Of a DNA stretch of 34,658 nt, positions 6,914-34,658 are shown in pieces. Each line of letters begins with the position of its first letter. The first letter of the stretch is position 1. This DNA comes from Promethearchaeota archaeon (lineage in GTDB: Archaea; Asgardarchaeota; Lokiarchaeia; Sigyniarchaeales; SOKP01): NCBI GenBank assembly GCA_048941285.1, contig JBHLNS010000036.1, forward strand, positions 1 to 34,658, in the 5' to 3' direction. The notes beneath the pieces are model-generated. The model saw only the letters and a program-made list of their open reading frames with translations. It searched no databases and was not told the origin of the DNA. Made by a program: the position numbers and the translations under genes.

Positions 6914-7435
6914 TTGGTGATTATCATCAGAGAAGAAACAGACTATACTGAGGCAATTGAAGCTTATAAAAACGATCCTCTTGTCATTTTAGAACCGTGG
7001 GGTAGAAGTATTGATCATTTGAGGCTTACCATCATTGGAAAAAAAGGAACTCCTTATGCAGATGGGAAATTTGTTTTTGAAATAAAATTTCCTGAAAACT
7101 ACCCTTTCGCACCTCCTTATGCTTATGCGGTTACTTTAATGTGGCACCCTAATATTGATTCTTCAATTCCACCAGGAAAGCTGAATATTTGTTTAGACTT
7201 AATTAATCCAGATCTTGTGGGTAAAGTAGATGCCAGTACAGGAGCTTCAGGCTGGACTCCAAGTAAAACTCTTACTAATATTATTGAGGCTTTAAAAGGT
7301 ATGATGCATGTTGAGCCTCCTTTCTTTAATCCTGGAGATCCATTAAACCATGAAGCAGGAGAACAGTATTTTAGAGCTCAAAAAAAGTTCGAAGCAAAAG
7401 CAGCTGCTTGGACTAAGAAATATGGGATGGATTAA
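6914..7435 (+). CDS. Ubiquitin-conjugating enzyme E2 (UBC fold)
   Basis: GTPYxxGxF, FPENYPFAPP, MWHPNI, catalytic Cys (NICLD), W-x-P, and PxDPLNxEA. The exact start is uncertain (TTG 6914, GTG 6917 or ATC 6926). Confidence 0.93.
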   Translation: MVIIIREETDYTEAIEAYKNDPLVILEPWGRSIDHLRLTIIGKKGTPYADGKFVFEIKFPENYPFAPPYAYAVTLMWHPNIDSSIPPGKLNICLDLINPDLVGKVDASTGASGWTPSKTLTNIIEALKGMMHVEPPFFNPGDPLNHEAGEQYFRAQKKFEAKAAAWTKKYGMD

Positions 7436-12800: not shown

Positions 12801-15800
12801 ATATCTATTGCTTCATGATATAATTCGATTGCTTGATCATAGTTTCCTTGTTCAATTTGTTTTTGAGCTTCTTCCAGTATATTAAAAGCTTTTTCTTTTT
12901 CTTTTTCTTGGAACAACCTTAATTCTTCTTCTTTATTCAGTTTCTCTTGTTTTTCTCTCATTTTTTGTTCTTCAAATTCAATTTTCTTCAGAATCTGCTC
13001 TTGAAATAATGAGTCTTCTTGGTCTCTTCTTACTTTTTGTTCAAATTCTTTAAATTGACGTAGATCTTCTTCTCTCTTTTTCTCTTGAATTTTTGAAATC
13101 ATTTCTCTAATAGAACCGGTAGGGAAATTAATTTCATTTAAAATTAACTCCGCTTGAATGTAATTTTTAATTGATTTTTCATATTCGCCTTGATTTAATA
13201 GATTTTGTGCATTATCCATTATGCTAAAAGCTTCTGACTTGCGTTTTTCCATATGCTTAATTAAATCTTCTCTTTTTTGTATTTCAATTTTCTTTTCTTG
13301 AATTTTTTTCTGTTCTTGAAGCATGTACTCACTAATTCTTTTTTGAAATAAATCTTCCTCTTTTTGATGTTTCAAGGAGCTTTCAAATTCCTTTTGTTTT
13401 TCACTCTCTTTTTCTTTTTCCCGTTGTTTGATTGTCTGAATTGTATCATTTAATAGTCTTAAGTATCGATCTTCCCAGCCAATCTCCCTGAGAAGTTCAA
13501 TAGCTTTATTATAATTTGCAATAGCATTATTGAAATTTTCATTTTCAAAGAGTATGTCTCCACTTTCTATTAAATTAAACGCTTTTTGCTGTCTAGCCAA
13601 ATTTTGGGCAGAAAGTTGTTTTTGTTTTTCAAATACTTCTTTCTGTATCAATAGTTCTGATTTTTCTCTTTCCGCCTGATATCTTATTCGTTCAATAAAT
13701 GCTCTATCTTCAGTTTCTTTTCTAATTGCTTTTTGTAATTCTCTTTGTTTATTTAATTCATCTTGTCTTTTTTTATTCTCAATTGAAAATATTGCCTCTT
13801 GGATGATGGAAATTTCTTCAGTCCATTGAATCTGAGCAAATATATTTGCAATATTATAATAAGTTTGAAGGGCATCATCATATTTTTTTTGAGAAAGAAA
13901 ATCCTGAGCCTTTTCTAGCAAATTAAAAGCCTCTTGCTTCTTTTCCTCCCGATAAGCAAATTCTTTTTCCTTCTCTCTAAGAAAAATCTTCCTTTTTACT
14001 AAGTCCTGATGTTGAGCTTTCATTTCTTTTGCAATACGCTCTTGAAATGCTTTTTCTTGCTTCTCACGATCTAATTTAGCTTGAAATTTAATTTGATTTT
14101 GAATATCTTTTTCTCTTTTCACATTTTCAATTTCGATTATTGCATTTTGGATAAGATTGATTTCATTCTGCCATTGAGCATCAGCAAAAAATGTAATTGC
14201 GTATTGAAGTATTTCAATAGCTTCATCAAAATTCCCTTCTTTAACATTAATTTGGGATTCATCAAGTAACCTGAAACCTGCTTCTCTTTTTTCTTCACGG
14301 AATTTTGCCTCTTTTTCACGTTCCATTAATTCAACTTTCTTTTTCTTAAGTTGTTCACGTTCTTCCCGTAAATATTTAGAAATTTGCTTTTGAAACTCTT
14401 CATCTTTCTTTTGTCTAGCGATATTTTCTTTCAATTCTTTTTGTTTTCTTATATTTTGTTTTCTTTTTAGTTCTTCAACCTCTCTTATTGATTCTTCAAT
14501 CAAAGGTATTTCCTCAGCCCATTGAATTTCAGCAAAAATGTTTGCGGCATTTTGATAATTTAGGATAGTTTTATCATAATCACCTTTTTTTAAGAAATCT
14601 ATAGCGGAATCTAAGAAGTCAAATGCTTGATTTCTTTTTTGTTCAAACATTTTGATTTCTTCTTCACGATCTTTAATTACTATTTCTTTCTTTTTTAAGC
14701 GTTCACGCTCTTTATTTATTAGAGCTCCTATTTGCTTCTGGAATTCTAATTCATCCAGGTTTCTTTCTTCTAATTTCTTTTGATGCTCATATAGTTTTTT
14801 AAGTTGTGTCTGTTTAAGTATTTCCACATTAGAGATCGTGTTTTGAACCATTGACCTATATGGCTCCCATCCAGGACCTAGATCTTTAAGGATTGGTAAA
14901 GCTTTATGATATATATTTATAGCTTCCTCGAAGTTTTTATCCTTTAGAATTTCATCTGCTTTATCTAATAACCTAAACAGGTCTTCTTCTTTATTTGCCT
15001 CGTCTCTCCTTTTTTCTTCATAATCTCTTCTTTTTTTGTCAAGTTCTTTTACAGATTCGATATAATGTTCCTTTTGTTTTTGTTGTATAGAATTTTGAAG
15101 TATTCGTAAATCTGATTGTCTTCGTTCTATTAATTGATTAGAAATCTTTTCTCTTTTTTGTTTGTTTTTTACAGTCTCAATTAAATTTGAAATTGGTTGA
15201 ATATATGAATCCCATTCTATTGATTTAAGAAGTTCAATTGCTTGATTGAATCTATCAATCGATTCTTCGTATCTATTTTCTCTCTCGAGCCTATTTCCGA
15301 TATCTATTAAATTAAAAGCTTTTAGTTGGAGCTCTTCCTCATACCTTTTCTTTGTCTCATATTTATCTAATCTTTCTTTTTTTATTTCTGCCTCTTTTTC
15401 TAGTATAACCTTCTGATCTTCAATATCCCTCCTTAAAGCTAATGGCTTCTCTATTTGATGGGTCTCAAATTCTAATTTATCTTGTTTAAGCTTTTCAATA
15501 ATAGTTTGAATTTTTTGAATTTGAACATTCCAACCAATAGATTTTAATAATTCAATTGCTCTTTCATAGTTCATTATTGCATTATCAAATCTCCTGTCTT
15601 TTTCAAATATTTTGGCAGCATCAATATGAGCGAATGCCTCATTCTGTGTATTCTCTTCATGTTGTTTTTTCTTTATAAACTTCTCCAAGACCTCTGATTT
15701 TTCAATACTACTTTTCTTCCCAAACATGCCAACAACTTGAGGTTTCTCATCTGAAACTGGCGTAGGAGCTTCTATTTTTAATTCGATTTCTGATTCTTGA

Positions 15801-16258
15801 TATTTTTGATCAATTTGTTGTTGTTCTGACTTCTTTACGAGTTTATTTATTTTAATTTTTAAATTCTCTAATTGGGTTTCAGACCAACCAGCTTCATTTA
15901 ATAATTTAATAGCAGATAAATATTGTTGAATAGCATCTTCAAAAAATCCGTCAAACTCTAGCTTTTTCGCTCCTTCTAAGATAATAAACGCTTGATCCTG
16001 TAATTGTTCAATTTGAGCTTTAGCTTGAGTTCGCTGATATAAAGTATCTTTTTTAAGAAAATCTCTTAATTCTCCTATTCTATCATAAATTTCTTGAATT
16101 CTATGCATCAAATATCCACTTTTTTTCAAAAAATCAGCAGCCTTTTGATAATTTGAAATTGCTTCTTGCAAGTTTTTCTCTTCTTCAAATTTTTGAGCAA
16201 TTTCTAGAAATTTTAAAGCTTCTTGTGCTAGTTCTTCTGGATTCTGCAATTTAAACAA
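9890..16258 (-). CDS. Giant (2122 aa) alpha-helical repeat protein: 18 MIT/TPR-like helical units separated by E/K/R/Q-rich helices
   Basis: Recurrent AFxxLxxAxxxxxxxxYDxAIxxYxxAxxILxEIx(W/F) with a ~116 aa period. No TM segment. TTG start. Confidence 0.85.
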   Translation of the reverse strand: MFKLQNPEELAQEALKFLEIAQKFEEEKNLQEAISNYQKAADFLKKSGYLMHRIQEIYDRIGELRDFLKKDTLYQRTQAKAQIEQLQDQAFIILEGAKKLEFDGFFEDAIQQYLSAIKLLNEAGWSETQLENLKIKINKLVKKSEQQQIDQKYQESEIELKIEAPTPVSDEKPQVVGMFGKKSSIEKSEVLEKFIKKKQHEENTQNEAFAHIDAAKIFEKDRRFDNAIMNYERAIELLKSIGWNVQIQKIQTIIEKLKQDKLEFETHQIEKPLALRRDIEDQKVILEKEAEIKKERLDKYETKKRYEEELQLKAFNLIDIGNRLERENRYEESIDRFNQAIELLKSIEWDSYIQPISNLIETVKNKQKREKISNQLIERRQSDLRILQNSIQQKQKEHYIESVKELDKKRRDYEEKRRDEANKEEDLFRLLDKADEILKDKNFEEAINIYHKALPILKDLGPGWEPYRSMVQNTISNVEILKQTQLKKLYEHQKKLEERNLDELEFQKQIGALINKERERLKKKEIVIKDREEEIKMFEQKRNQAFDFLDSAIDFLKKGDYDKTILNYQNAANIFAEIQWAEEIPLIEESIREVEELKRKQNIRKQKELKENIARQKKDEEFQKQISKYLREEREQLKKKKVELMEREKEAKFREEKREAGFRLLDESQINVKEGNFDEAIEILQYAITFFADAQWQNEINLIQNAIIEIENVKREKDIQNQIKFQAKLDREKQEKAFQERIAKEMKAQHQDLVKRKIFLREKEKEFAYREEKKQEAFNLLEKAQDFLSQKKYDDALQTYYNIANIFAQIQWTEEISIIQEAIFSIENKKRQDELNKQRELQKAIRKETEDRAFIERIRYQAEREKSELLIQKEVFEKQKQLSAQNLARQQKAFNLIESGDILFENENFNNAIANYNKAIELLREIGWEDRYLRLLNDTIQTIKQREKEKESEKQKEFESSLKHQKEEDLFQKRISEYMLQEQKKIQEKKIEIQKREDLIKHMEKRKSEAFSIMDNAQNLLNQGEYEKSIKNYIQAELILNEINFPTGSIREMISKIQEKKREEDLRQFKEFEQKVRRDQEDSLFQEQILKKIEFEEQKMREKQEKLNKEEELRLFQEKEKEKAFNILEEAQKQIEQGNYDQAIELYHEAIDIFRNIQWDEEIELIQNSIIAVEDKKREAEIRKQQELQLSIEKEKQERYFQEKLIKEMKSQREEIKRKEIILREKEKELSYLEKRKEEAFDILEEAQNYISLGKFDDAIERYHDVANIFAQIQWIEEIPTINKAIKNIEEKKRENDLIKQKSISEEIEKEKENYEFMERVRILRETERIKALEERERFEREKQLTRQYLEKEKEAFKFIDTGYNLLHQKNFNEALKNYQNATNLLTEIGWESDYLRLIKDTIKVIEVRKRDMERKKELEIESLKQRKSEEEHFQKKISEYMQREQERLRTKKIQIQKQEKLKQLIETRKTEAFDILNEAESYFNRGEYDQAIERYRKAELILNEIGFPTNSVREMIHKIQEKTKEDWIAKQKNLEAQLKQAQEEHKFQKQIANSIKVNEIRLKAKQKEIENQKEFYAYMEKRKEEAFNLLEKAEIYMNQLQYDKALEYYHTAELILNEIAFPTDSIRELVLKVQEKKREYHLQKQKDLELKLQKEREEWEYQQKVAENSRLEQERLKQKDLKILEREQLRSRLEERKEQAFKTLDDGEKFLKEQNYDNALVCYRRAGMILNELQFPTDSINNMIFKINRLKDQKTELENLEVKKELEKLEEERALSMLIEERRRQEREKKKAQQLALQEREKRIQEQMSVRESAYSLLEEASKSLKHHIPNYNEAISLYVQARHILAENIGWEPEIKNLDNLIRDLQKEQVNFLEKRRLEEQARIQRENEYAIFQEEVKKRRMEQERMKAAQEKQYRDIVIKRQQAEKIRDDGLKLIDEGKKWAAYHDFDRAYEIFNSAISKFQEIGWDEEIKYIETEIKNTKKLEDKVINEELRIQTIQEQLEEQRFLEKERREKEEFELKETIGEVSELADSIISLIEERRQEQKLAESEQKKEVKAKAREFRKEMTNLIKFKQELKEEITKKEDEKTQFQQKLEEAKEREKVDSLKKLIKDTAEKKKK
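11498..14275 (-). repeat. Intragenic tandem duplication of a four-unit block (1389 nt = 463 codons)
   Basis: Equivalent Phe codons of repeats 7, 11 and 15 start at 14275, 12886 and 11497, exactly 1389 nt apart. Unit types match pairwise (7/11, 8/12, 9/13, 10/14). Confidence 0.8.
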
Positions 16259-19311: not shown

Positions 19312-19833
19312 ATGTCAAGTTTCAAATTAAAAGTATTATTAACTGGAGCCGCAGCTGTTGGAAAAACAAGTCTTGTTCAACGTTTTATCAAGAATAGATT
19401 CCAAGCAAACTATAAATTGACTGTTGGTGTTGATATATTAACTAAGGATGTGGAATTTAGACCTGGAGAAATCGCTACCTTAAGCATTTGGGATATTGGG
19501 GGTCAGCAGCGTTTTGAATTTATCAGATCAACATTTTATAAAGGGGCAGCAGGAACATTATTAGTGTTTGATTTAACAAGAGAACAGACATACACAGAAA
19601 TTCGTAAGTGGCTTACTGAGATACGCCAATTTGCAGGTGATATTCCATTTGTTTTAATTGGAAACAAAGCAGATTTAATGGAAGATGTTGGGGTCGTCAT
19701 AGATCGAGATGAAGCTCGCTCTTTCGCAGAAAATGAGGGAAGTATCTATATTGAAACTTCTGCTAAAACGGGTATTAATGTTGATGAAGCTTTTACTGAA
19801 CTCACCCGTCGAATTATTGATTCTCGAGTATAA
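19312..19833 (+). CDS. Rab-like small GTPase
   Basis: G1 GAAAVGKTS, G2 TVGVD, G3 WDIGGQ, G4 NKAD, G5 ETSAK. RabF-like motifs FYKGA and LVFDLT. No C-terminal prenylation tail. Confidence 0.93.
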   Translation: MSSFKLKVLLTGAAAVGKTSLVQRFIKNRFQANYKLTVGVDILTKDVEFRPGEIATLSIWDIGGQQRFEFIRSTFYKGAAGTLLVFDLTREQTYTEIRKWLTEIRQFAGDIPFVLIGNKADLMEDVGVVIDRDEARSFAENEGSIYIETSAKTGINVDEAFTELTRRIIDSRV

Positions 19834-22656: not shown

Positions 22657-24552
22657 CTATTGTTGTAGATTTTTTAATAATTGTTCTAATTCTAATATTT
22701 TTTCATCGATTCTTTCATTATATTTATTAATTTCTTTCTTTTTTTCTTCAAGTTTATCTTTAGTAATTTGATTTTCTAATTCTTGCTTCTCCAGATCTGC
22801 ATCCATCTTAAATAAATTAGCTTTTCTTATTTTTAATTCTATTAATTCTCTTTTAATTTTTTCTACTTCTGTATTTTTGATAGTAGAAGGAGTTTGAGTA
22901 TTTACAAAATCATGAATCTCTCTCACCGGAATCGTATGATCTACAGCTTCTGCGTGTTCTATTCGGGTAGTAGATGTTGGAGATGATAGACTTTCTTCAA
23001 ATCCCACAAAATCTTTGATTTTTTTATTTAGAGTTTGACTTGGAGGAGTTTTTAAATTTATATTATTTATATTTTTAACATGACCATAAGCAGTTGTTTT
23101 CATTTTGTCTTTGGCATCTTTTGGGACAACCCCAATAGTCTTTGGTCTAATTTTCACCATAAAATCTTCAGGATTTAATTTTAAGACTTCTTTTTTAACT
23201 TCAACTTGAGATTCTAAAACTTTATCTTGATCATCTAATTTTTTACTTGGCTGAATCGACTGTTTAGATTCAACTGGTTCTGTCCTCTCTTTTAATTTCA
23301 AATTATCATCCACGACTTTTTTTTGCGAGATTTCTGATTGAGATCTTTCAGATGATAACGGCTGAGCAACTTCCATAGCTTTAATTGAAATTTTCGGTTT
23401 CATTTTAATTTCTTTTTCGATTGGTTCAATTACTTCAGAAGGTTTAGCTTCTTGAACACCAATTGTTTCTTTAGAAATTTCTGAATCTTGCTGAATTTGT
23501 TGAGGAATATCTGTTGCTTTTAACATCTCTATAATTTTCTGCGATTTTTCGAAGAATTCTTTTCCAAGAGAATCATCTCCTAATTCAATGCATAGGTAAC
23601 TAATTTTATCAAATAATAATGCTGCTTTTTCAAAATCAGCTGATTTTAATGCGATTGTAGCTTCTTCTATCAGTTTATCTCTTTCTAATAAAGGTTTTAA
23701 TAAAGGGGAAACCTCAGCACTCATTTCTAATATATCTGCAATGATTTTAATCATTTTATCTCGATTGCTAGGATCATTCGCTATCATTGAATATGCCTTT
23801 AAACCTAAAAAGTTTTCAATTTGTACTGGAGATAAAGCTCCTTTCAAATCTTGTTTATTCCCTATTATTGCTGTGTGAGCATGAGGTGCTTGTTCTTTTA
23901 TTAATTCTAAGAAAAACTTACTCTTATCAACATTTTCTAAAGTAGAATCTGTGACTAAAATAACTGCATCGCTGCCTTTAATGAAGTTATTCCAGAGATA
24001 ACTGAATTGTTCTTGTCCCGCAAAATCCCATAAATGAAAATGCAACTTTCCTATTTTCACGGTTGCAATATCACCTGTAATTGTAGGAATATGTTGTACT
24101 GGGATCTCTTCTGCTCTTATTAATTTTGTTATTGTTGTTTTACCAACTCCAGAAAATCCAACTAGTGAGATTTTTGGCCGAAGATTTTTATGGATTGAAT
24201 CTACAAATGGATCAAAAACCTCAAAAGTTTTTTTGTCATATCTATCATCTAGAATTTCTTCAAACAAATTAATAAAATCAGTTCTACATCTCAATAATTC
24301 CTTTTTTATATTTTCAAATTTATCTGTTAAGCCAGAAAGAAATAATATTATTAAATTCAAATCTTTTTTTGTTATATACGAGACCTTGAACTTATAATAA
24401 TCATAAGATTCAACTCTATCTTCCCTTCTGGTATCTTCATCTTTTATAATCTCTGAAACAAGATAATTTAAGACTTCTTGTTTAAGAGCTTTACCAAAAT
24501 GTCTATAATATAAGAGTTCATTCTCTTTATATATTAAAATTTGCCTTAGTAT
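22657..24552 (-). CDS. Longin-like domain + Arf-like small GTPase + helical (MIT/TPR-like) unit + low-complexity linker + C-terminal coiled coil (631 aa if started at ATA 24552)
   Basis: GFSGVGKT, HIPTI, LWDFAGQEQF, W-x-x-F, DST and GNKQD. The frame stays open 64 codons upstream of the track's TTG (24360): ILRQILIYKENELLYYRHFGK...YKFKVSYITKKDLNLIILFL. GGTGA lies 6 nt before the ATA. Confidence 0.85.
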   Translation of the reverse strand: MLRQILIYKENELLYYRHFGKALKQEVLNYLVSEIIKDEDTRREDRVESYDYYKFKVSYITKKDLNLIILFLSGLTDKFENIKKELLRCRTDFINLFEEILDDRYDKKTFEVFDPFVDSIHKNLRPKISLVGFSGVGKTTITKLIRAEEIPVQHIPTITGDIATVKIGKLHFHLWDFAGQEQFSYLWNNFIKGSDAVILVTDSTLENVDKSKFFLELIKEQAPHAHTAIIGNKQDLKGALSPVQIENFLGLKAYSMIANDPSNRDKMIKIIADILEMSAEVSPLLKPLLERDKLIEEATIALKSADFEKAALLFDKISYLCIELGDDSLGKEFFEKSQKIIEMLKATDIPQQIQQDSEISKETIGVQEAKPSEVIEPIEKEIKMKPKISIKAMEVAQPLSSERSQSEISQKKVVDDNLKLKERTEPVESKQSIQPSKKLDDQDKVLESQVEVKKEVLKLNPEDFMVKIRPKTIGVVPKDAKDKMKTTAYGHVKNINNINLKTPPSQTLNKKIKDFVGFEESLSSPTSTTRIEHAEAVDHTIPVREIHDFVNTQTPSTIKNTEVEKIKRELIELKIRKANLFKMDADLEKQELENQITKDKLEEKKKEINKYNERIDEKILELEQLLKNLQQ

Positions 24553-24558
24553 GTTGTT

Positions 24559-24563
24559 TCACC
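24559..24563 (-). promoter_or_regulatory. Archaeal Shine-Dalgarno-like GGTGA upstream of the ATA codon
   Basis: Minus strand reads GGTGA-AACAAC-ATA-CTA-AGG. Confidence 0.5.
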
Positions 24564-25051: not shown

Positions 25052-28000
25052 TTATTTTTCATCTGATTTTAAATTATAATAAACATCTTCAAGGATTTCA
25101 AGATATTCCATCAGGACTTTATTTGTCAATGATTTTTGCTCATATGAGGTCTTGATGACTTGTAAAAGATATTTTGGAAATATCAAATCTATATAAAAGT
25201 CAGATAATAACGCGTAATATTCATTATTCATTTCGTCTTGGAAAACAGCAATCAATTTATTTTCCCATAAAGCTTTTATAACTCCATACGGATCAGCAAC
25301 GCCTTTTACTTTTAGCTTTTCCAATTCTTGTCTTGAAACAATCGCACTTCTTAATAACCTTAGTGTTAAATGAACCTGAGGATTACTTAAAAGTGTAACA
25401 ATTTTTAAATTATCCTCATTAGATGGGATATAACTCTGAAAAAATTTCTTCACTATGTCTATATACTCTTTTTTAAATTGTGTTGGAAGTCCACGATTAA
25501 TAGGGTCTTCAATTATTTCTATAGGAGGAACCCTCAACATATAAACATCATTAATTAAAACAATTAATTCTGAGAGTAATCCTTTTACAGAAACTTGTTT
25601 TATGATCCCTTTCTTTAACAAATCGGATATGGTTGCTTCTAAATCAATAAACTTTTCGATATACTTATCTTTAAACCATATAACTAGTTCTGCTTTACTT
25701 ATCACACCTGCTTCTCTTAAATTATCTATAATCATTCTTTTTGCTTCATCTTGATATGTAAGTGCTAATATTTCTTCATCACTAAAAGATGGATATAATG
25801 ACAGGCGCTGGAAATAAGATGGCATAAGCATTTTAAATGAATCATCTTCAACATTTTCTATGAGACCCCGTAAAACATCAGCCATTCCTCCTTCATAAAG
25901 ATCTGGATCGTCTTCTAAATCTAAAATTAAAAGAAGATAATAACCTTGTTCAGGTCCAGTGTAATAAGAAATAATATTCAGAGGACCAACACTCAGAGTT
26001 ATTGTCCCTTTTTCTCCACTATATTCATGTGTACTATATATTTGCATACAAGTTTTTTCTGAAATTATAGTTTCTTCCGGATATTTCGCTAAAATCTCTG
26101 TTCCAACTCTCTCATTCCATTTCATCAATACTAATCCAACTGGTGTTAATTCATGAACTTTCGCAATATCACTAGATCTTTTGTGTAATTTTTCACTCTT
26201 CTTAATTTTCTCTACCTTAACATTTAGTATTTCTGCTAAAGAAAGATCAAGGTTATTCCATCTATGATTCACTCTCTCCACGATAAAGGCTTCTTTATTG
26301 CGGTATAATAAAGATTCGTCTACATCTTTGCCTTTTTTAATGCTTTTTTTCATTTCCCTTACTTTTCTTACGAAAGCAGGTATTTTAGCATAATGGTATA
26401 CTCTATATCCTACAATACTCCCAACTATAGCAAGTGCCGCAGATAAGATCAGTAAGAAATAAAATGTTGGAACTCCTGGAAAAATTTGTTCCATTTCAAC
26501 AACAATAATAATATCAAATTCTTGAGAAATATAATATAATTTTGTAATGTTAATGGTCCCTGTGAGTGTGTTTGATGTAAAAAAGGCATTTATATTATAT
26601 GTTGGAAAATTGCATATGTATGTACCATTTCCAATATGAGTAAAATTATAGAGATTTCCCTTTATTGTTAAAGTTATTGTAGCATCAAGCAACCAACTAT
26701 CACCTTTCGTAGGATCAGTTAGAATTATTTGTATTGGAACGGGATTGCCTTTTACTACACTCGTTTTCCTATTTTGAAAATTATGGCTTAAAATAGGTTC
26801 TCCAATCTCTCTTTTTTTAATGGTTAAAATAATCATCGCATTCTTACGGTCATAATTATCTTTTTCTAAAGCAATAATCAAGAAATATTCACCCAAAGCT
26901 CTTGATTCTGTGTTAAAATCTAAGATATAAGTGTTATCTCTAGCAGAAATTATATCTCCATAACCATTTTCAATTACGTTCCCTAGACGATCATAACGTT
27001 CCCACACATAATATTGAGTCTTTAAGTTGACAATTTTAGTCCCTCTGAGTGCATCAGTAAAGACTAAAGTGAAATTAACAGCATCCTGCACATAAACACT
27101 TTCAATCTTTCTGAAAAATTCTGAGGACTGATTTAGCAGTGTTAGGCGATTTAGAACGATTAAATCAAGATCTTTAGTGGTAATCTTATAATGCTCTTTA
27201 TCTATAGTGAATCTTACAGTATACTCATCAGCGTCAAGTAAAGAAGTATCGATTGTCTTTAGGTAATATTTTAAATCTGAATCATATTGAACTGGGCCAT
27301 AAATGGAAGGAGCTTCAACAATAGTATAAGTTAAAGAACCGATTATTTCATAAGATACTGTTCGTGAATATTGAATTGAAAGTAAAAGAATAAAATCGAC
27401 TGATAAGGAGGTTTCAATGACCGCATGTAAGAGTTGTGCTTTAGAGAATCCTGTAAGGGAAAATGTTCCCGTTCCTGAAGAATAATCCGAAATACTATAC
27501 TTTTGCCCTCCAATAGTAATGTTCATTGCTACTTCTGAAGGAAAGAAATAGTTTGATCCACTTTTTATGCTTTTAACCCATAATATAGATTCATCTTCCT
27601 TCCAACTACTCTCAGTTGCACTTATTTGAAGTGAACCTCCATTTGTAATCCCTCTTTCTGTTCTTGTGCAATTTAATGTTTCCAAAAATTGGTTCTTATA
27701 AAATCCTTGAATATATTCCACTTTGATAATAGCATTAAATATGATATTTGGATCACTCTCAACAGTAAATAAGAATTGATTGCCTATAGGATAGATAGTC
27801 CTGTCGTCTATACTTAAAGAGCCGGTTCCATCCGGATAGCCATAATCTAATAAATATGTGAAGCCTTCGTTTGTAGTAATGGAAATATTTGTTAAACTTG
27901 ACAAATCTACGATACTCCAATCAGAGCTATCATAACATTCAGAAATCTCAAAAGTTATATTACTGATTATCCATCCTTCCACTTCGGATAGAAGGGAAAT

Positions 28001-31000
28001 TTCACTACTAACATTAAATTTAGAATATTGTACATTTATTAAATCCCTGATAAAATATGCATCTGCGATAATATCAACAGTATTCTCAAATGTACCTCTG
28101 ATGATAAACTCAAAATTATTATCATTGGTGCGACTGGCTTGATTTAGATTCAAAGTGATTCCTGTCCACGTACCTTGAGTATAATCCCATCCACTGTTAT
28201 TGTAATTAAAAGTATAAACAAAAGTACCATAAGGATCTTCAATTGTAACATTAATATTAGTGATATCAGTATTCCAAGAAATATTATAGAGATTTAATAC
28301 TATTTTAGATAAATTCCAATGAGTTTCTAGGTCAGAAATCAAGAAATCAAAGTGATGATCGATACTTTGGAAGACAATGTTTTCTACAGTAAGCGTTTCA
28401 GAATTACTGCCATAAGAATTTAACGTCATATCTGCACTTTCCAACCAATATACTGATATGTCTGAATCATCATTGCTAGATTGATTTAATTCTAATTGAT
28501 TTTCCAAAATATTTAATTGAAGAATTCTATCTGAAGGAATAGTATATCCCGATTTATAAGCGGATATTATGATTATATACCTCTTTGCGCTAACAAGTTT
28601 TTTTGTATCAATTTCAACAAAATGCCTTCCTTCATTATCTTCTTCTAAGGAGAAAGCTCCTGATATTACAGTATTCCCCCCTAATAATAATGTATATCTC
28701 ATTGAGTCCGCATAAACAGGTCCTAAAAGAGATTCATACCCTGCTTCCACTTTACTCACATTAAATAGCGTCCGTAGCTTTAATAAAGTACCCCATTCAA
28801 TTTCAATATAATCCGTAGGATTTAATGATATCAGTTCTGTTTGGAATTTGCTTAAATCGATTAAAATTCTAAATTCTAAATTATCCTTGTTTGTGATTGT
28901 GAAACTTATATTATTGACTTCAGCGGGGCCTCCAACTGATTGATTGAAAAGTTTATTAACCCCAAAAAATTCAATTTGGAGTGAATAATCCCCCCCTATC
29001 CCTAAGGATGTTAACCACCTCAATGTTGCCTGCCCATTTATGTCAGTGGTTAGATTTGCAATACTTGGACCTAATGGATTGTTAAGAGTCAACTTAAGTT
29101 TCACTCCACTAACAGGCGTTATAGGAGCATTAATTGTTTGCACTGTAAATTCTACAGTGGTTAATTCTACTTGTACTTGAATGGTGGTATTAACAGTAGT
29201 AATGTCTCCTGAAGCAATATCAATTATAGGTGGATTATAACTTGGGTTTCTATAGTAGATAGTGTAATTATACGTGGAAGGAGGAGCATTAACCCACCAA
29301 AACTTAGTATGCCCTGATGAATCAATTATACACTTTTTAAGCTGGTGTGTGGCGTTACCTACGATTATCCATCCAGAATCAACAGGATCAAGATCAACAT
29401 CAATTACTTCAAAGAAATGAGTACTTACATCACAAATTATATCAATAGTTTGAAATGGTTGATCAACTATTATGGCTTGAGATGTAGAATTTACTATCTC
29501 GACAATCTCTCCAATACTTGAATGAATGGTTGCTGTGAAATTATATGCGCCTTCAAGAATGTTTGTAAAACTTACACTACCATCAGTACCGGTGATACCC
29601 TGTTCTATTAAATCAAAATGTTGATACATTGAAATAGTAACATTAGGAAGCAAATTACCATATAAATCTAATGCATTAATTGAAATATCTACTTCAAGAA
29701 GCGGTTTTGAATGTTTTTCATCACTTATACTGAAAAAAGTATTAGGGTCATATTGGTTGTAATATTCAGTTGTTAACCATCCCTCAGATCTATAATTATT
29801 GGATACACGAAATTCATCCAAATACCCCTTAAAGCAACCTGAAGATTCTCCAATATAAAATAAACTTGAATCTGTGACAAGAGGATATCCACCTATATTT
29901 GTTGAATTTGGATTTGTACCATTAATATAGCTTCGTAGATAAGTACCATCATAAGAATAGGTAATATAGGTCCATCGCTGACGAGTAATTTCTCTCGGAT
30001 TATAAACTGTACCACGAGTAACAAATCTGATATCCGGTTGAAAAGAACCCAGACCAGGACCATGATAACTACGATAAATACGCGCAAGGCTAATAGAAGA
30101 TGCTTTATAGAATACACGGGGCTCTCCAGCATTTAACCATTCTTGGTCAGTTGCGTAATTAGGGTAAATCCAAAATGAAAATGTAAATATATTATCTCCA
30201 TTAAAAATTTGAGATCCTTGATTGATAATTATTCTATTATCACCCGATCCTGTAAAATATCTCGCTCCATCTATAATACTTGTTCCAAAAAATTGAGTAC
30301 CATAAGGGGTTCCGTCATAATCATTTGAAGTTGAATCTTTAATATAGTCACCGGTTCCACTTGGTTCATTAAAATGCCAGACTGATTTATAATCTAGCCA
30401 TACTTCCGTTGGATTTTGACGAGAATTCATAGTAGAATTGCCATAATACATAAATATTTCAGTATCTTCTACCGTAGATAAAAAAGGGATGCAAACCCAT
30501 GCAACTAATCGGGCATGTGTTCCATTATAGGTTTGATCAAACAATTCTATTTGGTGATCTAACCATTGACCATCAGTTGAAAATGCTATGTCATCTCCAT
30601 CAGATTGCACATCAAAGCGAAGATCTGTATCGAAAATCGAGACCAAAAAGGGAAAGTTAACATGGCTGCCTATTCCATCAACTTTTGTGTGATCTATTGT
30701 AATTATTTTATAATAATCAAAATAATCTGCATTTGGAGTAATATCATTTACTATTTGTTCACTTCCTACTGAACCAAATGTACTAGGATCATTCTGGTTA
30801 TCATATTCTGTCCTTAACCAGGCATCTGATCGAATTGTCGATGAGATTTTAACCTCATCAATAATCGCATCAATAGGTCTAGCTCCCGTAGGACTATTTC
30901 CAATTGTAATTGGCCAATTATTTTCACGTAATGCTCCTGTTTTACTTTCTGTATAAACAGTATTTCCATCTAAAACAAGATTTATATTTGAGCCATCATA

Positions 31001-33037
31001 TCTAATTGAAACTAAATACCATGTATTGATTGAAAGAGGACCTGATGTAGCTTCTACTGTGGATGTTCCAGCTGCATCATTAGTTCCGGTTTTAATCCTT
31101 CCTCTCAAGTAATATGGACCATTCTCGGTTAATGACTGATTATATGTCCCTAGCATCCAAACATGATATTCTGAACTATCACTCGTACCTGAGTTTTTGG
31201 ACAAAACACGAGCATCACTATACCCCGACCAAATTGAATCAAAGGATTCATATTTGACCCAAGCTTGAATAGTAATCTTACTTCCTGAGACACTCCACGT
31301 TCCTATATTAATATTATCGCTACCATCATCATGTTCAAAATCTTGGCCATCCCCGATCTTACCTTCAATATCTACTGAACCTGTATTAGTTCCATCTCTA
31401 TTACGAGAGGTAGAATCCAAAAAGTCATCGTCTAAGTGATATACACCTTCATAATAACTATCCCAGACCCCTTCGGGATTTTCTCGAGCAGCCATGGTTG
31501 AATTTCCATAATACATAGCAATAGTTGTATTGACAGTAGAATATAAATATGGAATTTGAACCCATACATCTAATTGAGCTTCTGTACTGCTATAAGTTTG
31601 ATCAAATACTAAAATTTCATGATCTAACCAATCACCACCAGCAGCAAAAGCAATATCATCCCCATCTGACTGAGCGTGATATTTTAAATCTTTATCAACA
31701 ATTGAAAATAAGAACGGAAAATTATTATGTATTGCTGTACCAGAAACTTCATTATGATCGATGGTAATAAGTTTATAATATGCGAAATAATGGGAATTAG
31801 GGGGTTCCCAAATGACAACTTGTTCATTTCCAATAGTATAAAAAGAATTAGGATTATATTGATTATTGTATTCTGTTAATACCCAACTACTTGAAAGAGC
31901 AGTTTTAAGAATCCTAAACTCTGAAATTGCTCCTGAACCCCAAATACCTGACCCCCCAATCGTTGCCAAAATTGAAAATCGATCCCATGATAAATGTTGA
32001 TTTGCAATATCAGAACCGGTATCAGATAAATCCAATATACCATCTATATATTCATATGCAGTTGACAAACTCCTAGATCTTGCATAGGTAAATTGAAACC
32101 ATGTATCAGCAGCCCATGAATCTTTTATGCCATAAATACCTTCACTATTATCTGATGTTACTTCTAAATAAACATTTACAGTTCCACTAGTGGTAAATCT
32201 CATCTCAGGTGATAAATCAGGAGTATTGCCTTGGAAAAAAACCATATTAGCGCTTGTATTGTCAATCGTATTATCAGGCTTAAACCAAGTTTGAAAACTC
32301 ATGTCATCTATAGGGCCATTGATACTATTTATATAAAAATAATCATTACTTCCATCAACAGAAATTGCTGTACCTACTTTTCCATCATAAAAACGTGTGT
32401 CGCTAGTAAATCCAGTTGTAATCAAATCATAATTGTTTGCAGTACTATCTAAAATGTTAGAAGATAAAGGATTTTGATTCATATGCCATACCGCTACATA
32501 ATTGCTATTCCATACTCCAGCTGGATTTTGTCGTGAATTCATTGTTGAGTTACCATAGTACATTCTAATAACAGTATCAATAGTAACAGAGAGTGCTGGA
32601 ATTCGAACCCAAACTACTAGTTTAGCATGTGTTCCATTATAGGTTTGATCAAATAACTCAATCTCATGATCTAACCAAATATTATTGGAAGAAAAAGCAA
32701 TATCATCTCCATCAGATTGAACATCAAGACGTAAGTCTGTATCAAAAATTGAAATGAGAAAAGGAAAATTGTTAAAACCACTTGTTCCTGAAACTTGATT
32801 ATGATCTATGGTTATAATTTTATAGCGATCAAAATAATGCGCATTAAGCGGAGCATTTAAATTTAAATTTCTTTTTAATTCATCGGTACTATCTTTATTC
32901 TTTATAGATTCAATATTGGGTGATAGAGAAAATAATGGTGTGCTAATTAACAACGGGATTATAATTGTGAACAATAAGAATAGAAGTGCCTTAATCTTTT
33001 TTTTTGTAATGATTGATCTAATATTTTTAGATGTCAT
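25052..33037 (-). CDS. Giant receptor-like membrane protein: N-terminal signal/TM, 3x(DUF2341 + LamG/ConA-like), beta-sandwich stalk, TM helix, cytoplasmic uDENN/longin-like + 2 winged-helix-like domains
   Basis: Three ~350 aa repeats (YKIITIDH...NFPFL.SI.D.DL...QSDGDDIAF...WLDHEI...W(V/I).IP...MYYGNSTM...VWH.N...DEFR.S....S.W..TEY.NQ..P). TM FYFLLILSAALAIVGSIVGY followed by a basic stretch. Cytoplasmic GLVLMKWNERVGTEILAKYP. Many N-x-S/T sequons in the ectodomain. Confidence 0.85.
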   Translation of the reverse strand: MTSKNIRSIITKKKIKALLFLLFTIIIPLLISTPLFSLSPNIESIKNKDSTDELKRNLNLNAPLNAHYFDRYKIITIDHNQVSGTSGFNNFPFLISIFDTDLRLDVQSDGDDIAFSSNNIWLDHEIELFDQTYNGTHAKLVVWVRIPALSVTIDTVIRMYYGNSTMNSRQNPAGVWNSNYVAVWHMNQNPLSSNILDSTANNYDLITTGFTSDTRFYDGKVGTAISVDGSNDYFYINSINGPIDDMSFQTWFKPDNTIDNTSANMVFFQGNTPDLSPEMRFTTSGTVNVYLEVTSDNSEGIYGIKDSWAADTWFQFTYARSRSLSTAYEYIDGILDLSDTGSDIANQHLSWDRFSILATIGGSGIWGSGAISEFRILKTALSSSWVLTEYNNQYNPNSFYTIGNEQVVIWEPPNSHYFAYYKLITIDHNEVSGTAIHNNFPFLFSIVDKDLKYHAQSDGDDIAFAAGGDWLDHEILVFDQTYSSTEAQLDVWVQIPYLYSTVNTTIAMYYGNSTMAARENPEGVWDSYYEGVYHLDDDFLDSTSRNRDGTNTGSVDIEGKIGDGQDFEHDDGSDNINIGTWSVSGSKITIQAWVKYESFDSIWSGYSDARVLSKNSGTSDSSEYHVWMLGTYNQSLTENGPYYLRGRIKTGTNDAAGTSTVEATSGPLSINTWYLVSIRYDGSNINLVLDGNTVYTESKTGALRENNWPITIGNSPTGARPIDAIIDEVKISSTIRSDAWLRTEYDNQNDPSTFGSVGSEQIVNDITPNADYFDYYKIITIDHTKVDGIGSHVNFPFLVSIFDTDLRFDVQSDGDDIAFSTDGQWLDHQIELFDQTYNGTHARLVAWVCIPFLSTVEDTEIFMYYGNSTMNSRQNPTEVWLDYKSVWHFNEPSGTGDYIKDSTSNDYDGTPYGTQFFGTSIIDGARYFTGSGDNRIIINQGSQIFNGDNIFTFSFWIYPNYATDQEWLNAGEPRVFYKASSISLARIYRSYHGPGLGSFQPDIRFVTRGTVYNPREITRQRWTYITYSYDGTYLRSYINGTNPNSTNIGGYPLVTDSSLFYIGESSGCFKGYLDEFRVSNNYRSEGWLTTEYYNQYDPNTFFSISDEKHSKPLLEVDISINALDLYGNLLPNVTISMYQHFDLIEQGITGTDGSVSFTNILEGAYNFTATIHSSIGEIVEIVNSTSQAIIVDQPFQTIDIICDVSTHFFEVIDVDLDPVDSGWIIVGNATHQLKKCIIDSSGHTKFWWVNAPPSTYNYTIYYRNPSYNPPIIDIASGDITTVNTTIQVQVELTTVEFTVQTINAPITPVSGVKLKLTLNNPLGPSIANLTTDINGQATLRWLTSLGIGGDYSLQIEFFGVNKLFNQSVGGPAEVNNISFTITNKDNLEFRILIDLSKFQTELISLNPTDYIEIEWGTLLKLRTLFNVSKVEAGYESLLGPVYADSMRYTLLLGGNTVISGAFSLEEDNEGRHFVEIDTKKLVSAKRYIIIISAYKSGYTIPSDRILQLNILENQLELNQSSNDDSDISVYWLESADMTLNSYGSNSETLTVENIVFQSIDHHFDFLISDLETHWNLSKIVLNLYNISWNTDITNINVTIEDPYGTFVYTFNYNNSGWDYTQGTWTGITLNLNQASRTNDNNFEFIIRGTFENTVDIIADAYFIRDLINVQYSKFNVSSEISLLSEVEGWIISNITFEISECYDSSDWSIVDLSSLTNISITTNEGFTYLLDYGYPDGTGSLSIDDRTIYPIGNQFLFTVESDPNIIFNAIIKVEYIQGFYKNQFLETLNCTRTERGITNGGSLQISATESSWKEDESILWVKSIKSGSNYFFPSEVAMNITIGGQKYSISDYSSGTGTFSLTGFSKAQLLHAVIETSLSVDFILLLSIQYSRTVSYEIIGSLTYTIVEAPSIYGPVQYDSDLKYYLKTIDTSLLDADEYTVRFTIDKEHYKITTKDLDLIVLNRLTLLNQSSEFFRKIESVYVQDAVNFTLVFTDALRGTKIVNLKTQYYVWERYDRLGNVIENGYGDIISARDNTYILDFNTESRALGEYFLIIALEKDNYDRKNAMIILTIKKREIGEPILSHNFQNRKTSVVKGNPVPIQIILTDPTKGDSWLLDATITLTIKGNLYNFTHIGNGTYICNFPTYNINAFFTSNTLTGTINITKLYYISQEFDIIIVVEMEQIFPGVPTFYFLLILSAALAIVGSIVGYRVYHYAKIPAFVRKVREMKKSIKKGKDVDESLLYRNKEAFIVERVNHRWNNLDLSLAEILNVKVEKIKKSEKLHKRSSDIAKVHELTPVGLVLMKWNERVGTEILAKYPEETIISEKTCMQIYSTHEYSGEKGTITLSVGPLNIISYYTGPEQGYYLLLILDLEDDPDLYEGGMADVLRGLIENVEDDSFKMLMPSYFQRLSLYPSFSDEEILALTYQDEAKRMIIDNLREAGVISKAELVIWFKDKYIEKFIDLEATISDLLKKGIIKQVSVKGLLSELIVLINDVYMLRVPPIEIIEDPINRGLPTQFKKEYIDIVKKFFQSYIPSNEDNLKIVTLLSNPQVHLTLRLLRSAIVSRQELEKLKVKGVADPYGVIKALWENKLIAVFQDEMNNEYYALLSDFYIDLIFPKYLLQVIKTSYEQKSLTNKVLMEYLEILEDVYYNLKSDEK
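26332..26515. repeat. 184-nt direct repeat, copy 1 (TM/juxtamembrane coding region); copy 2 at 34475..34658
   Basis: Ungapped manual alignment shows 14 mismatches in 184 nt, with perfect runs of 49 and 45 nt. Confidence 0.85.
29718..32854 (-). repeat. Three tandem DUF2341+LamG modules (about 1050 nt each; starts near 32854, 31807 and 30739)
   Basis: Clear protein-level triplication. Modules 1 and 3 share an identical 29-nt stretch, gcatgtgttccattataggtttgatcaaa. Confidence 0.8.
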
Positions 33038-33188: not shown

Positions 33189-34658
33189 TTATTTCGATTT
33201 TTCTACATCTTTTAATTTAAAATAAGCTTCTTCCAGTATTTTAAGATATTCAATTAAAACTTTTTTATTTTTTGATTTTTGCTCATATTCAATCTTTACA
33301 GCTTTCAATAAGTATTTTGGAAAAAGGTAATCAATATAAAAATCTGAAAGAAGAGCATAGTATTCAATATTCTTGTCATCTTGAAATACTTTAATCATCT
33401 GATTATCCCAAAGTAGTTTCAAAACAGTATAAACATCTTCAACTCCTTTTTTTCTGAGCTTCTCAAGATCTTGCCTTGTAACTATTGCCGTTCTTAAAAG
33501 TCTTAAAGTTTCATAAACTTGTGGATTAACGATGATCTCAACAATTTTTATGTTATCTTCTTCTGCGGGGCGATAATTCTGGAAAAAGTTTTTAATATCA
33601 TTAGTATACTCCTTAGCAAATTGAGAGGGTAAACCATGACTAGTTGGGTTATCCAATAACTTAAGAGGTGGGGTTCTTACCATAAAAATATCCGTAGTTA
33701 GTAAAACCAGTTCTGAATGTATATTTTTTACAGAACTAACCTTTATAATTTCTAGTTTAATGAGTTCTGTCAAAATTGCATCTAAATCAAAAAATCCTTC
33801 TATAAACTTATCTTTGAGCAAAATATTCAATTCCGATTTGGTGATAACTCCATCCTCTCTTAATAGATTGATAATTGTTCTAATAATCTTGTTTTGATAA
33901 GCTAATGCTAAAATCTCTTCAGAACTGAGCGACGGATATAATGATATGCGCTGAAAAAGTATTGGAATCATTTGAATATAGGAATCATCTTCAAGATTTT
34001 CTAGTACATCACGCAAAATGTCAGCCATTCCACCTTCATAAAGATCGGGGTCATCATCTGTATTCAAGATTAAAATGAGATAATAACCTTCTTCTGGTCC
34101 TGTATAATAGGATAAAATATTTACTACTTCTGCAGTTAATGTTATAGTCCCTTTTTCTCCGCTATATTCATGTGTACTGTATACCTGCATTAAAGTTTTT
34201 TCTGAAATCGGAACATCTTTAGGATATTTAGCTAGAATTTCCGTTCCAATTCTTTCATCCCATTTCATAACTATTAACCCAAGAGGTTTTTTATCGTGTA
34301 CTTCAGTAATTTTTGAGACCTTTCGTTTAGATATCGATCTCTTTTCCTCTTTCTCAACGGTTATTCCAAGTATATCTTCTATTGATAAACCAATTTTCGC
34401 CCAATCTCGTTTTAATATTTCTCCAATTAATATTTCTTTATCACTATACAAAAGTGATTCTGCTATAGTTTTATCTTTTTTAATGCTTTTTTTCATTTCC
34501 CTTACTTTTCTTACGAAAGCAGGGGTTTTAGCATAATGGTATACTCTATATCCTACAATACTCCCAACTACGGCAACTATCGCAGATAAGATTAGCAAGA
34601 AATAAAATGTTGGAACTCCTGGAAAGATCTGCTCCATTTCAACGACAATGATAATATC
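33189..34658 (-). CDS. C-terminal part (5'-truncated by the window edge) of a paralog of the 2661 aa receptor-like protein: TM + uDENN/longin-like + winged-helix-like domains
   Basis: The frame is open to the window edge (DIIIVVEMEQIFPGVPTF...) and is colinear with the neighbour's last ~490 aa. The track's Met at 34637 is therefore internal. Confidence 0.9.
   Translation of the reverse strand, partial: DIIIVVEMEQIFPGVPTFYFLLILSAIVAVVGSIVGYRVYHYAKTPAFVRKVREMKKSIKKDKTIAESLLYSDKEILIGEILKRDWAKIGLSIEDILGITVEKEEKRSISKRKVSKITEVHDKKPLGLIVMKWDERIGTEILAKYPKDVPISEKTLMQVYSTHEYSGEKGTITLTAEVVNILSYYTGPEEGYYLILILNTDDDPDLYEGGMADILRDVLENLEDDSYIQMIPILFQRISLYPSLSSEEILALAYQNKIIRTIINLLREDGVITKSELNILLKDKFIEGFFDLDAILTELIKLEIIKVSSVKNIHSELVLLTTDIFMVRTPPLKLLDNPTSHGLPSQFAKEYTNDIKNFFQNYRPAEEDNIKIVEIIVNPQVYETLRLLRTAIVTRQDLEKLRKKGVEDVYTVLKLLWDNQMIKVFQDDKNIEYYALLSDFYIDYLFPKYLLKAVKIEYEQKSKNKKVLIEYLKILEEAYFKLKDVEKSK
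34475..34658. repeat. 184-nt direct repeat, copy 2 (may extend beyond the window)
   Basis: About 92% identical to 26332..26515 by manual count. Confidence 0.85.

Follow-up and report, generated by a model that had tools for sequence, protein, structure and literature searches.

A putative longin and winged-helix module genetically linked to giant surface proteins and Arf-like GTPases in Asgard archaea

Asgard genomes encode many small GTPases as well as many longin and roadblock proteins, and it is not known which regulators pair with which GTPases. In the eukaryotic proteins NPRL2 and NPRL3, an N-terminal longin domain is followed by two or more winged helix-turn-helix (wHTH) repeats (Levine 2013, PMC3747258). 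Here we describe a module with a putative longin-then-wHTH order and, like NPRL2 and NPRL3, a link to GTPases of the Arf/Rag type. It forms the cytoplasmic end of a giant surface protein, which is encoded by a stretch of 34,658 nucleotides from a Promethearchaeota archaeon (contig JBHLNS010000036.1 of assembly GCA_048941285.1). We will call this whole stretch the window. An earlier note, made from the sequence alone, had described the protein as a lectin-bearing receptor whose tail has an NPRL2/3-like domain order. This order agrees with that given by Levine (PMC3747258), although the longin is putative and the first wHTH is matched weakly (E = 0.039). Unlike NPRL2 and NPRL3, the module does not match the Pfam family NPR2 and lacks a conserved arginine finger, and we saw no DEPDC5-like partner.

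Several other described systems resemble parts of this one. Like the module, the "NPRL2-like longin" proteins are abundant in Asgard genomes (10.1101/2020.10.19.343400, PMC9834061), and some of these families are reported to be fused to two-component domains (10.1101/2020.10.19.343400). In contrast to them, the module is tied or fused to a giant single-pass surface protein. Fusions of longins to GTPases have also been published for Asgard archaea (PMC10933270, PMC11914678, and the preprint of Liu et al., 10.1101/2020.10.19.343400). C9orf72-SMCR8, FLCN-FNIP, and the Asgard longins with a GP motif (PMC12290439) share a W-D-x3-G-P motif before the second strand with some relatives of the module, namely members from family f7 and a 125-aa paralog. 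As with C9orf72-SMCR8 and FLCN-FNIP, the module's likely partner GTPases are Arf-like or Rag-like, and adjacent genes for related longin-like domains in the Asgard family f13 recall these heterodimeric longin pairs. But the module's N-terminal domain is followed by wHTH segments and not by DENN. The module also differs from the GTPase-activating protein (GAP) class of GP-motif longins (FLCN, SMCR8, NPRL2, and C9orf72; PMC12290439), as just 7 of 60 members have the proline and the arginine finger is not conserved. In Myxococcus, a small Ras-like GTPase (MglA) and a roadblock/longin-type regulator (MglB) govern surface adhesion (PMC9481161, PMC13408092), which is a prokaryotic parallel; however, the GTPase that we discuss is Arf-like with a putative N-terminal longin, and its presumed regulator combines wHTH repeats with a physical or genetic tie to the receptor.

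The texts that we covered do not describe a link between these longins and giant surface proteins, the juxtamembrane motif, or the Arf-like GTPase cluster; the family may still be among the entries of Data S1 of PMC12290439 or of the asCOG tables from Liu et al. Within these texts, the suggestion that the architecture was uncharacterized holds for the coupling to a receptor, but NPRL2-like longins were already known in Asgard archaea (10.1101/2020.10.19.343400).

The giant surface protein is a single open reading frame (ORF) of 2661 amino acids (aa; Table 1). Its hydropathy profile has two hydrophobic segments, at aa ~13-39 and aa ~2186-2211, and the second of these is flanked by acidic residues upstream and by a K/R-rich stretch downstream. 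By the positive-inside rule, ~2150 aa are predicted to lie outside the cell and 450 aa (2212-2661) inside. The gene product is a type-I surface protein in which a long stalk carries a head that is variable and of the lectin type. In the ectodomain, Pfam identifies three stretches of Laminin_G_3 (E = 3.7e-36, 125 bits versus a cut-off of 27.6) and three of DUF2341 (E = 1.3e-18, 67.7 bits versus a cut-off of 23.4). Translation, hydropathy, and Pfam thus confirm the ORF, the ~2150-aa ectodomain with three DUF2341 + LamG units, the single internal transmembrane helix (TM), and the ~450-aa tail that the earlier note had described, and the charges and the signal peptide support its receptor-like orientation.

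Because sequon counts are uninformative, the topology rests on the charges, on the signal peptide, and on the soluble module of related proteins, which lacks a signal. All 35 N-x-S/T sequons are in the outside part, but shuffled sequences give 30.3 +/- 4.8 (P = 0.19), so the ectodomain is not sequon-rich beyond its composition, as had been claimed. Nor is the absence of sequons from the tail significant (0 versus 1.7 expected; P = 0.14 from shuffles). The proposed beta-sandwich nature of the stalk is hinted at by prealbumin/CarboxypepD_reg-like matches at aa ~1119-1170 (CarboxypepD_reg, E = 0.0033; SpaA, E = 0.097), both of which are below the Pfam cut-offs, and the stalk has no NCBIfam matches. 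The membrane-proximal part of the stalk is common to paralogous receptors: using phmmer, aa 1701-2297 match receptors from families f1 and f2 with E values of 1e-22 to 1e-78.

The tail comprises a juxtamembrane (JM) segment of 86 aa (aa 2212-2297) and a module of 364 aa (aa 2298-2661). It does not begin with the strand that had been taken as its start, as this strand opens the module instead; the five strings that were quoted from it lie at aa 2301, 2436, 2470, 2558, and 2587. The module has 780 homologs of near-full length, and the best 120 of these are 76-94% identical to one of the paralogs in the source genome (on contig C83). Clustering at 50% yields 289 representatives, of which 95 have E values below 1e-30. 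The usual state of the module is a free, soluble protein of ~365 aa without a signal. The names that are given for homologs and clusters are all "hypothetical protein", from Asgard (Promethearchaeota) bins. Scans of the whole libraries assign the module to no Pfam or NCBIfam family, and its look-alikes in the Protein Atlas are unnamed Asgard clusters only.

Across 201 sampled Asgard genomes, the same module is present in 148, mostly as a separate gene. It is found in every sampled genome of families f1 (40/40), f7 (43/43), and f12 (19/19), and there are up to 10 matches per genome in f1. In this survey, it was not found in f5 (0/21), f14, f16, or f22.

The next gene upstream in the window is a second fusion of a receptor to the module, and the two modules are 61-62% identical. 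In the C83 and C43 paralogs from the source genome, in contrast, the receptor ORF ends ~85 aa behind the TM; an ORF of its own, of 370-371 aa, encodes the module from the same residue onward, with a stop/start overlap (TAATG). The fused junctions differ from the split ones by a small indel and by the loss of the TAATG overlap. Contigs from other public runs span the junction without indels; these are short unitigs from mixed strains, so they prove only that an indel-free junction region exists. By maximum likelihood, the fused copies from the window group as sisters (support of 100/99) inside a clade of split forms from their own family, which makes the fusion the derived state. Further fused forms are known (P0124-P0131, of 588-2548 aa), and long open frames that contain the module also occur in genomes G150, G153, and G180. 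The single-protein architecture that the earlier note had described is real, but it is a minority state, derived from an arrangement of two, and often three, genes that extends across the phylum.

Other module proteins (P0168, P0177, and P0198) have C-terminal extensions that bear SIR2_2 and/or TPR repeats. Of the 10 extended proteins that were scanned, 7 have no Pfam family.

To describe the genomic context, we considered 47 module genes, from 40 regions of 36 other genomes and from four copies in the source genome. The regions were chosen from the module survey for their spread, and their surroundings were not known beforehand. We found that 35 of the 47 module genes are fused or adjacent to a gene for a large, signal-bearing protein whose single TM lies late in the sequence; one conserved small ORF separates the two genes in 5 of these 35. 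A gene for the longin-like + Arf-like GTPase is in the cluster for 20 of the 47, half of them with the receptor (10) and half without (10). Just two module genes, both from family f21, have neither nearby. As background, large proteins with a signal and a late TM account for 25 of the 3142 ORFs in the source genome, and GTPases of this subfamily account for 9 of the 3142.

In f1, f2, and f13 the genes run receptor-module(-GTPase), and in f7 they run module-receptor-GTPase. In one region (L081), the receptor, the module, and the GTPase share a strand, with an overlap of 4 nt and a gap of 8 nt. The window's own GTPase gene comes after the fused receptor gene.

The receptors that are linked to the module have something in common besides their size. 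The motif [RK]-I-P-x-x-[IV]-[KR]-[KQ] is found behind the TM in module-linked receptors from distant Asgard families, and in the source genome, a profile of the TM and JM segments identifies exactly four proteins, which are the receptors partnered with the four close modules. Conservation rises towards the inside of the cell. Relative to the C83 and C43 paralogs, the identity is 26-31% in the head (over short stretches), 28-35% in the stalk, 42-46% in the TM and JM segments, and 54-62% in the module; the TM and JM segments are 62% identical to those of the second copy in the window. The heads vary: some have LamG, and others have Ig-like or prealbumin-like Pfam matches or nothing. Given that the genes are otherwise separate, their natural fusion is Rosetta-stone support for an association of the receptor with the module.

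We noticed other small ORFs in these clusters. In f3 and f13, an ORF of 136-161 aa lies between the module and receptor genes (L038:7620-8042, L041:7305-7790, and L043:7462-7872), and small ORFs are at the same position in L073:5876-6289 and L077:7547-7966. The products from L038, L041, and L043 are basic, similar to each other, and without a Pfam family; this intervening ORF may encode a further subunit. In f8 and f19, an ORF of ~106-112 aa lies behind the GTPase gene in the module-GTPase operon (L071:9953-10285, L072:9993-10313, L076:9988-10326, and L078:10022-10342), and those of L071, L072, and L076 have coiled-coil-like matches that are all sub-threshold. In f7, genes for a carboxylase, a biotin carrier, and a thiolase lie upstream of the module; these, like the ~215-aa ORFs upstream in f8 and f19 (by eye, phosphoribosyltransferase-like), look like unrelated housekeeping genes.

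The GTPase next to the fused receptor in the window belongs to the same subfamily as the GTPases encoded beside module genes elsewhere. It matches Pfam's Arf family (E = 3.2e-22, 79.3 bits versus a cut-off of 22.3), and database relatives are named "ADP-ribosylation factor-like protein". Its G1-G5 motifs are intact, including the glutamine of switch II: K129, G134-T142, DxxGQ, and NKxD show little or no variation across 39 sequences. The partner GTPases also match Pfam's SRPRB (E = 7.4e-6 to 1e-3). All members of the subfamily have an N-terminal domain of ~125 aa, and in one of them (L050) this domain passes the threshold for Pfam's Clat_adaptor_s, which has the longin fold (22.8 bits versus a cut-off of 22.5).

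At profile E values below 1e-30, the GTPase subfamily is present in 150 of the 201 genomes. The presence or absence of the module and of the GTPase agrees in 21 of 27 families, and both are missing from f5 (0/21), f14, f22, f24, f25, and f27. The conserved clusters and the matching phyletic patterns, and not a motif alone, support the earlier idea that the tail may be coupled to small GTPases.

The start of the GTPase gene in the window is unusual. The longin-like N-terminal part (24360-24560, minus strand) lies before the first TTG, in the same frame. At the position of the orthologs' initial methionine (M-L-R-Q), the window has ATA (24550-24552) with a TGA stop in front of it, and the full-length GTPase would thus have no ATG, GTG, or TTG start. 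Two relatives in the databases, at 97-98% identity, are annotated from a later start.

How might these proteins work together? We judge the chances to be about even that the module is an NPRL2/3-like adaptor, with a longin and wHTHs, that couples variable surface receptors to the Arf-like GTPase. The adaptor, which is a free soluble protein in most genomes, would bind its cognate receptor at the conserved juxtamembrane helix; in the window protein, the adaptor would be covalently joined to the receptor instead. The adaptor's longin would pair with the N-terminal longin of the dedicated Arf-like GTPase to form a longin-longin platform that carries the G domain, and longin/roadblock platforms (PMC3747258) are a model for such a pairing. 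In this way, events at the receptor, or the receptor's location, would be linked with the GTPase's nucleotide state or with its recruitment. A broader version is possible but more doubtful: that this is a phylum-wide transmembrane axis in which fast-evolving giant receptors or adhesins recruit an NPRL2/C9orf72-type adaptor via the juxtamembrane helix, and the adaptor both pairs with and controls the longin-Arf-like GTPase.

This proposal depends on the nature of the module's N-terminal domain (N-domain). We use "longin" for an alpha/beta fold of ~120-140 aa with the order strand-strand-helix-strand-strand-strand-helix(-helix). The N-domain has ~125 aa and also occurs alone, as a 125-aa stand-alone paralog. 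Chou-Fasman predictions averaged over the alignment, which are crude, give strand-strand-helix-strand-strand-strand-helix. In an alignment of 60 module homologs (A1), W10, G15, and P23 (module numbering) are each at least 90% conserved, which shows that the start pattern pointed out in the earlier note (a hydrophobic strand and the motif behind it) is beyond chance. The spacing of W-D-x3-G-(P) equals that of C9orf72, whose residues are W33-D34 and G38-P39 (section 2.4 of PMC12290439). WD is present in 43 of the 60 homologs, and G15 is followed by P in just 7 and by A, T, or V in the others; the complete WD-x3-GP is found in members from f7 and in the 125-aa paralog.

Relatives of the N-domain are also associated with GTPases. 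In the source genome, two of them are fused to GTPases (C70, with Arf at E = 3.6e-29, and C40), and profiles link them weakly to the N-domain (E = 8.7e-4 for C70 and 1.5e-3 for C40). At C28:8491-10577 (L061, L065), a 290-aa relative that bears the G-P is encoded directly downstream of a Rag-type GTPase (Gtr1_RagA, E = 5.8e-39, with a Roadblock C-terminal domain, E = 4.3e-6, both in Pfam). In f13, the module gene is directly preceded by a gene for a short, N-domain-only paralog that has the complete W-D-x3-G-P (L041:9199-9678 and L043:9373-9816). That these genes are side by side suggests a heterodimeric pair of related N-domains. Taken together, the motif, the crude secondary structure, and the GTPase context suggest that the N-domain has a longin fold.

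We do not think that the N-domain is a uDENN, as had been proposed as one option: the segment behind it looks like wHTH and not like cDENN, and Pfam finds no DENN family. In profile searches of PDB, positions 248-317 of A1 match winged helices of the ArsR/MarR type, including PH1932 (1uly; E = 6.6e-5) and HlyU (E = 0.0061) as well as SmtB and AdcR. The second of the two wHTH segments that had been claimed is thus a winged helix (winged helix B); the first is weakly matched.

A number of observations weigh against the proposed adaptor. First, profiles do not link the N-domain to known longins: it has no hits to the longin families in Pfam at E values up to 10, PDB searches with two longin-only alignments (A2 and A4) returned noise only, and hhalign gives a probability of 0.46% for a match to the N-terminal domain of the partner GTPase. 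In the source genome, nothing significant was found for NPR2, C9orf72-like, or Folliculin, and NPR2 (PF06218) has no matches there and is above its cut-off in 0 of 201 Asgard genomes. Second, the window copy has W-N and G-T in place of WD and GP. Third, none of the columns of the N-domain has a conserved arginine across the 60 homologs. Fourth, positions 133-218 of A1, which would be the first wHTH, match only Mnd1 (E = 0.039). Fifth, the receptors were identified with a hydropathy heuristic, and in a second sample just 8 of 14 receptor neighbors have the strict juxtamembrane pattern (some of these are cut by contig ends). Sixth, the phyletic match between the module and the GTPase overstates its weight because related genomes are not independent. 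Finally, linkage and fusion show a functional association and not a mechanism.

We also tried and rejected other routes to a known longin family. A single match to Folliculin (E = 0.0057) was discarded because the same level is reached in 8 control genomes. A bridge via Pfam-positive, NPRL2-like proteins from Asgard archaea failed, as no NPR2 match was above the cut-off in the 201 genomes. Scans of the module against all of Pfam do not find NPR2 or NPR3.

The arginine bears on what an adaptor of this kind might do. We take the loop before the fifth strand to be the arginine-finger position. Arginine is present in this loop in 13 of the 60 homologs and not in the window, and the loop is short in both window copies. 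Without a conserved arginine and with a short finger loop, we would expect the adaptor to be an effector, a scaffold, a partner of the guanine nucleotide exchange factor (GEF) type, or a non-catalytic partner, rather than an arginine-finger GAP.

Among the alternatives, the strongest, though we still consider it unlikely, is that the module and the Arf-like GTPase target, insert, or anchor giant surface proteins, in the style of the SRX longin of SR-alpha and SR-beta. Their role would be in biogenesis, placement, or cytoskeletal anchoring instead of signaling. SR-alpha:SR-beta is indeed a membrane longin bound to an Arf-family GTPase (PMC3747258), and the partner GTPases match SRPRB, albeit weakly. 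Also, the clients would be very large exported proteins with variable heads, and lokiarchaeal cells have many complex surface proteins and no S-layer (PMC9834061). Yet the module, unlike SR-alpha, has no NG domain of the SRP54 type; it is attached to variable surface proteins, and a genome holds many such paralogous pairs. Where it is fused, the module stays covalently on the mature receptor. One-to-one pairing of modules and receptors is more in keeping with a stable partner than with a machine for insertion in general, and 10 of the 47 module genes are beside the GTPase without a nearby receptor gene.

Somewhat less likely still, in our view, is that the N-domain has an unrelated alpha/beta fold and that its similarity to the start motif of C9orf72 and NPRL2 is convergent or due to chance. 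The module would then be an adaptor specific to Asgard archaea. The uniformly negative profile tests and the scarcity of the GP-motif proline (7/60) are what one would expect if this were so. However, escape from sequence-based detection is known for longin families: NPR2 hits above the cut-off are absent from all 201 genomes even though NPRL2-like longins are reported in Asgard archaea (10.1101/2020.10.19.343400). The N-domain's size, its order of elements, its stand-alone and GTPase-fused relatives, and its GTPase neighborhoods all fit a longin.

The least likely of the alternatives is that the module regulates transcription while tethered or recruited to the membrane, akin to one-component regulators such as ToxR or CadC, and that its wHTHs bind DNA and its N-domain senses or dimerizes: winged helix B does resemble DNA-binding regulators, a look-alike in the Protein Atlas (at a score of 0.79, which is under the 0.9 level and so a lead only) is named "putative winged helix-turn-helix transcriptional regulator", and wHTH repeats may bind DNA, RNA, or protein (Levine 2013, PMC3747258), but across the 60 homologs mean net charges are +0.6 and -1.0 for the wHTH segments, which is near neutral, and -10 for the strongly acidic N-domain, the steady linkage is to a GTPase gene and giant receptors and not to target operons, and there are up to 10 matches per genome in f1, paired one-to-one with receptors where this was checked (4/4 of the close copies in the source genome).

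If the module is instead an adaptor between receptors and the Arf-like GTPase, then it may address a published question. Section 2.6 of PMC12290439 asks which GTPases partner with the GP-motif longins, and the broader version of our proposal, if true, would name a GTPase partner. In MK-D1, longin/roadblock regulators and GTPase genes do not, as a rule, share operons (PMC10933270). Here, a widespread and highly conserved but unannotated family has a fixed genetic link both to a specific subfamily of Arf-like GTPases and to giant surface proteins at their cytoplasmic ends. Fusions that occur naturally point to a pair that would interact, which makes for a concrete three-protein system to express. 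These findings suggest how archaea may connect the cell surface with GTPase switches, and they offer a possible molecular handle on how Asgard surface proteins are coupled to internal switches, which bears on models of eukaryogenesis that invoke cell-cell contact. If the broader version is true, this would be a prokaryotic forerunner of signaling from receptors to small GTPases and of membrane-anchored longin complexes (GATOR1, folliculin, and C9orf72-SMCR8).

Table 1. Features of the window, with positions in nucleotides and the basis for each assignment.
Feature	Position	Strand	Basis
E2	6914-7435		UQ_con 4e-26
E1-like ThiF protein	8159-9751		1.4e-57
173-aa Ras/Rab-like GTPase	19312-19833		Ras 6.6e-49
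Longin-like domain + Arf-like GTPase + long C-terminal extension	22657..24552	minus	full profile match 23521-24552
Giant surface-protein ORF	25052..33037	minus	2661 aa, no internal stops
Module C-terminal helical segment, aa 2618-2661	25055..25186	minus	F-P-E-Y-L-L stretch conserved in A1
Winged helix B, aa 2543-2617	25187..25411	minus	A1 profile versus PDB, PH1932 (1uly) E 6.6e-5
Putative winged helix A, aa 2423-2512	25502..25771	minus	weak: Mnd1, E 0.039
Module N-domain, putative longin, aa 2298-2422	25772..26146	minus	motif W-[DN]-x3-G-x7-P
Juxtamembrane segment, aa 2212-2297	26147..26404	minus	motif [RK]-I-P-x-x-[IV]-[KR]-[KQ] right behind TM
Single transmembrane helix, aa 2186-2211	26405..26482	minus	hydropathy; flanking charges
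Stalk, aa 1101-2185	26483..29737	minus	no Pfam families above cut-off
DUF2341 + LamG unit 3, aa ~772-1100	29738..30724	minus	top DUF2341 stretch aa 813-894; repeat start aa 772
DUF2341 + LamG unit 2, aa ~414-770	30728..31798	minus	top Laminin_G_3 stretch aa 570-739; repeat start aa 417
DUF2341 + LamG unit 1, aa ~66-405	31823..32842	minus	Pfam; repeat start aa 68
N-terminal signal peptide / anchor, aa 1-40	32918..33037	minus	hydropathy peak aa 13-39 after K-rich stretch
Second receptor-module fusion (stalk end, TM, juxtamembrane segment, module)	33189..34658	minus	translation; cut by contig end

The whole window contains no tRNA and no match to an Rfam family. A protein of 2122 aa (9890-16258, minus strand) is rich in K and E, has many repeats of a helical unit of ~70-80 aa, and has no TM. 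The E2, the E1-like ThiF protein, and the Ras/Rab-like GTPase that are also encoded in the window are a typical eukaryote-like gene set for Asgard archaea.

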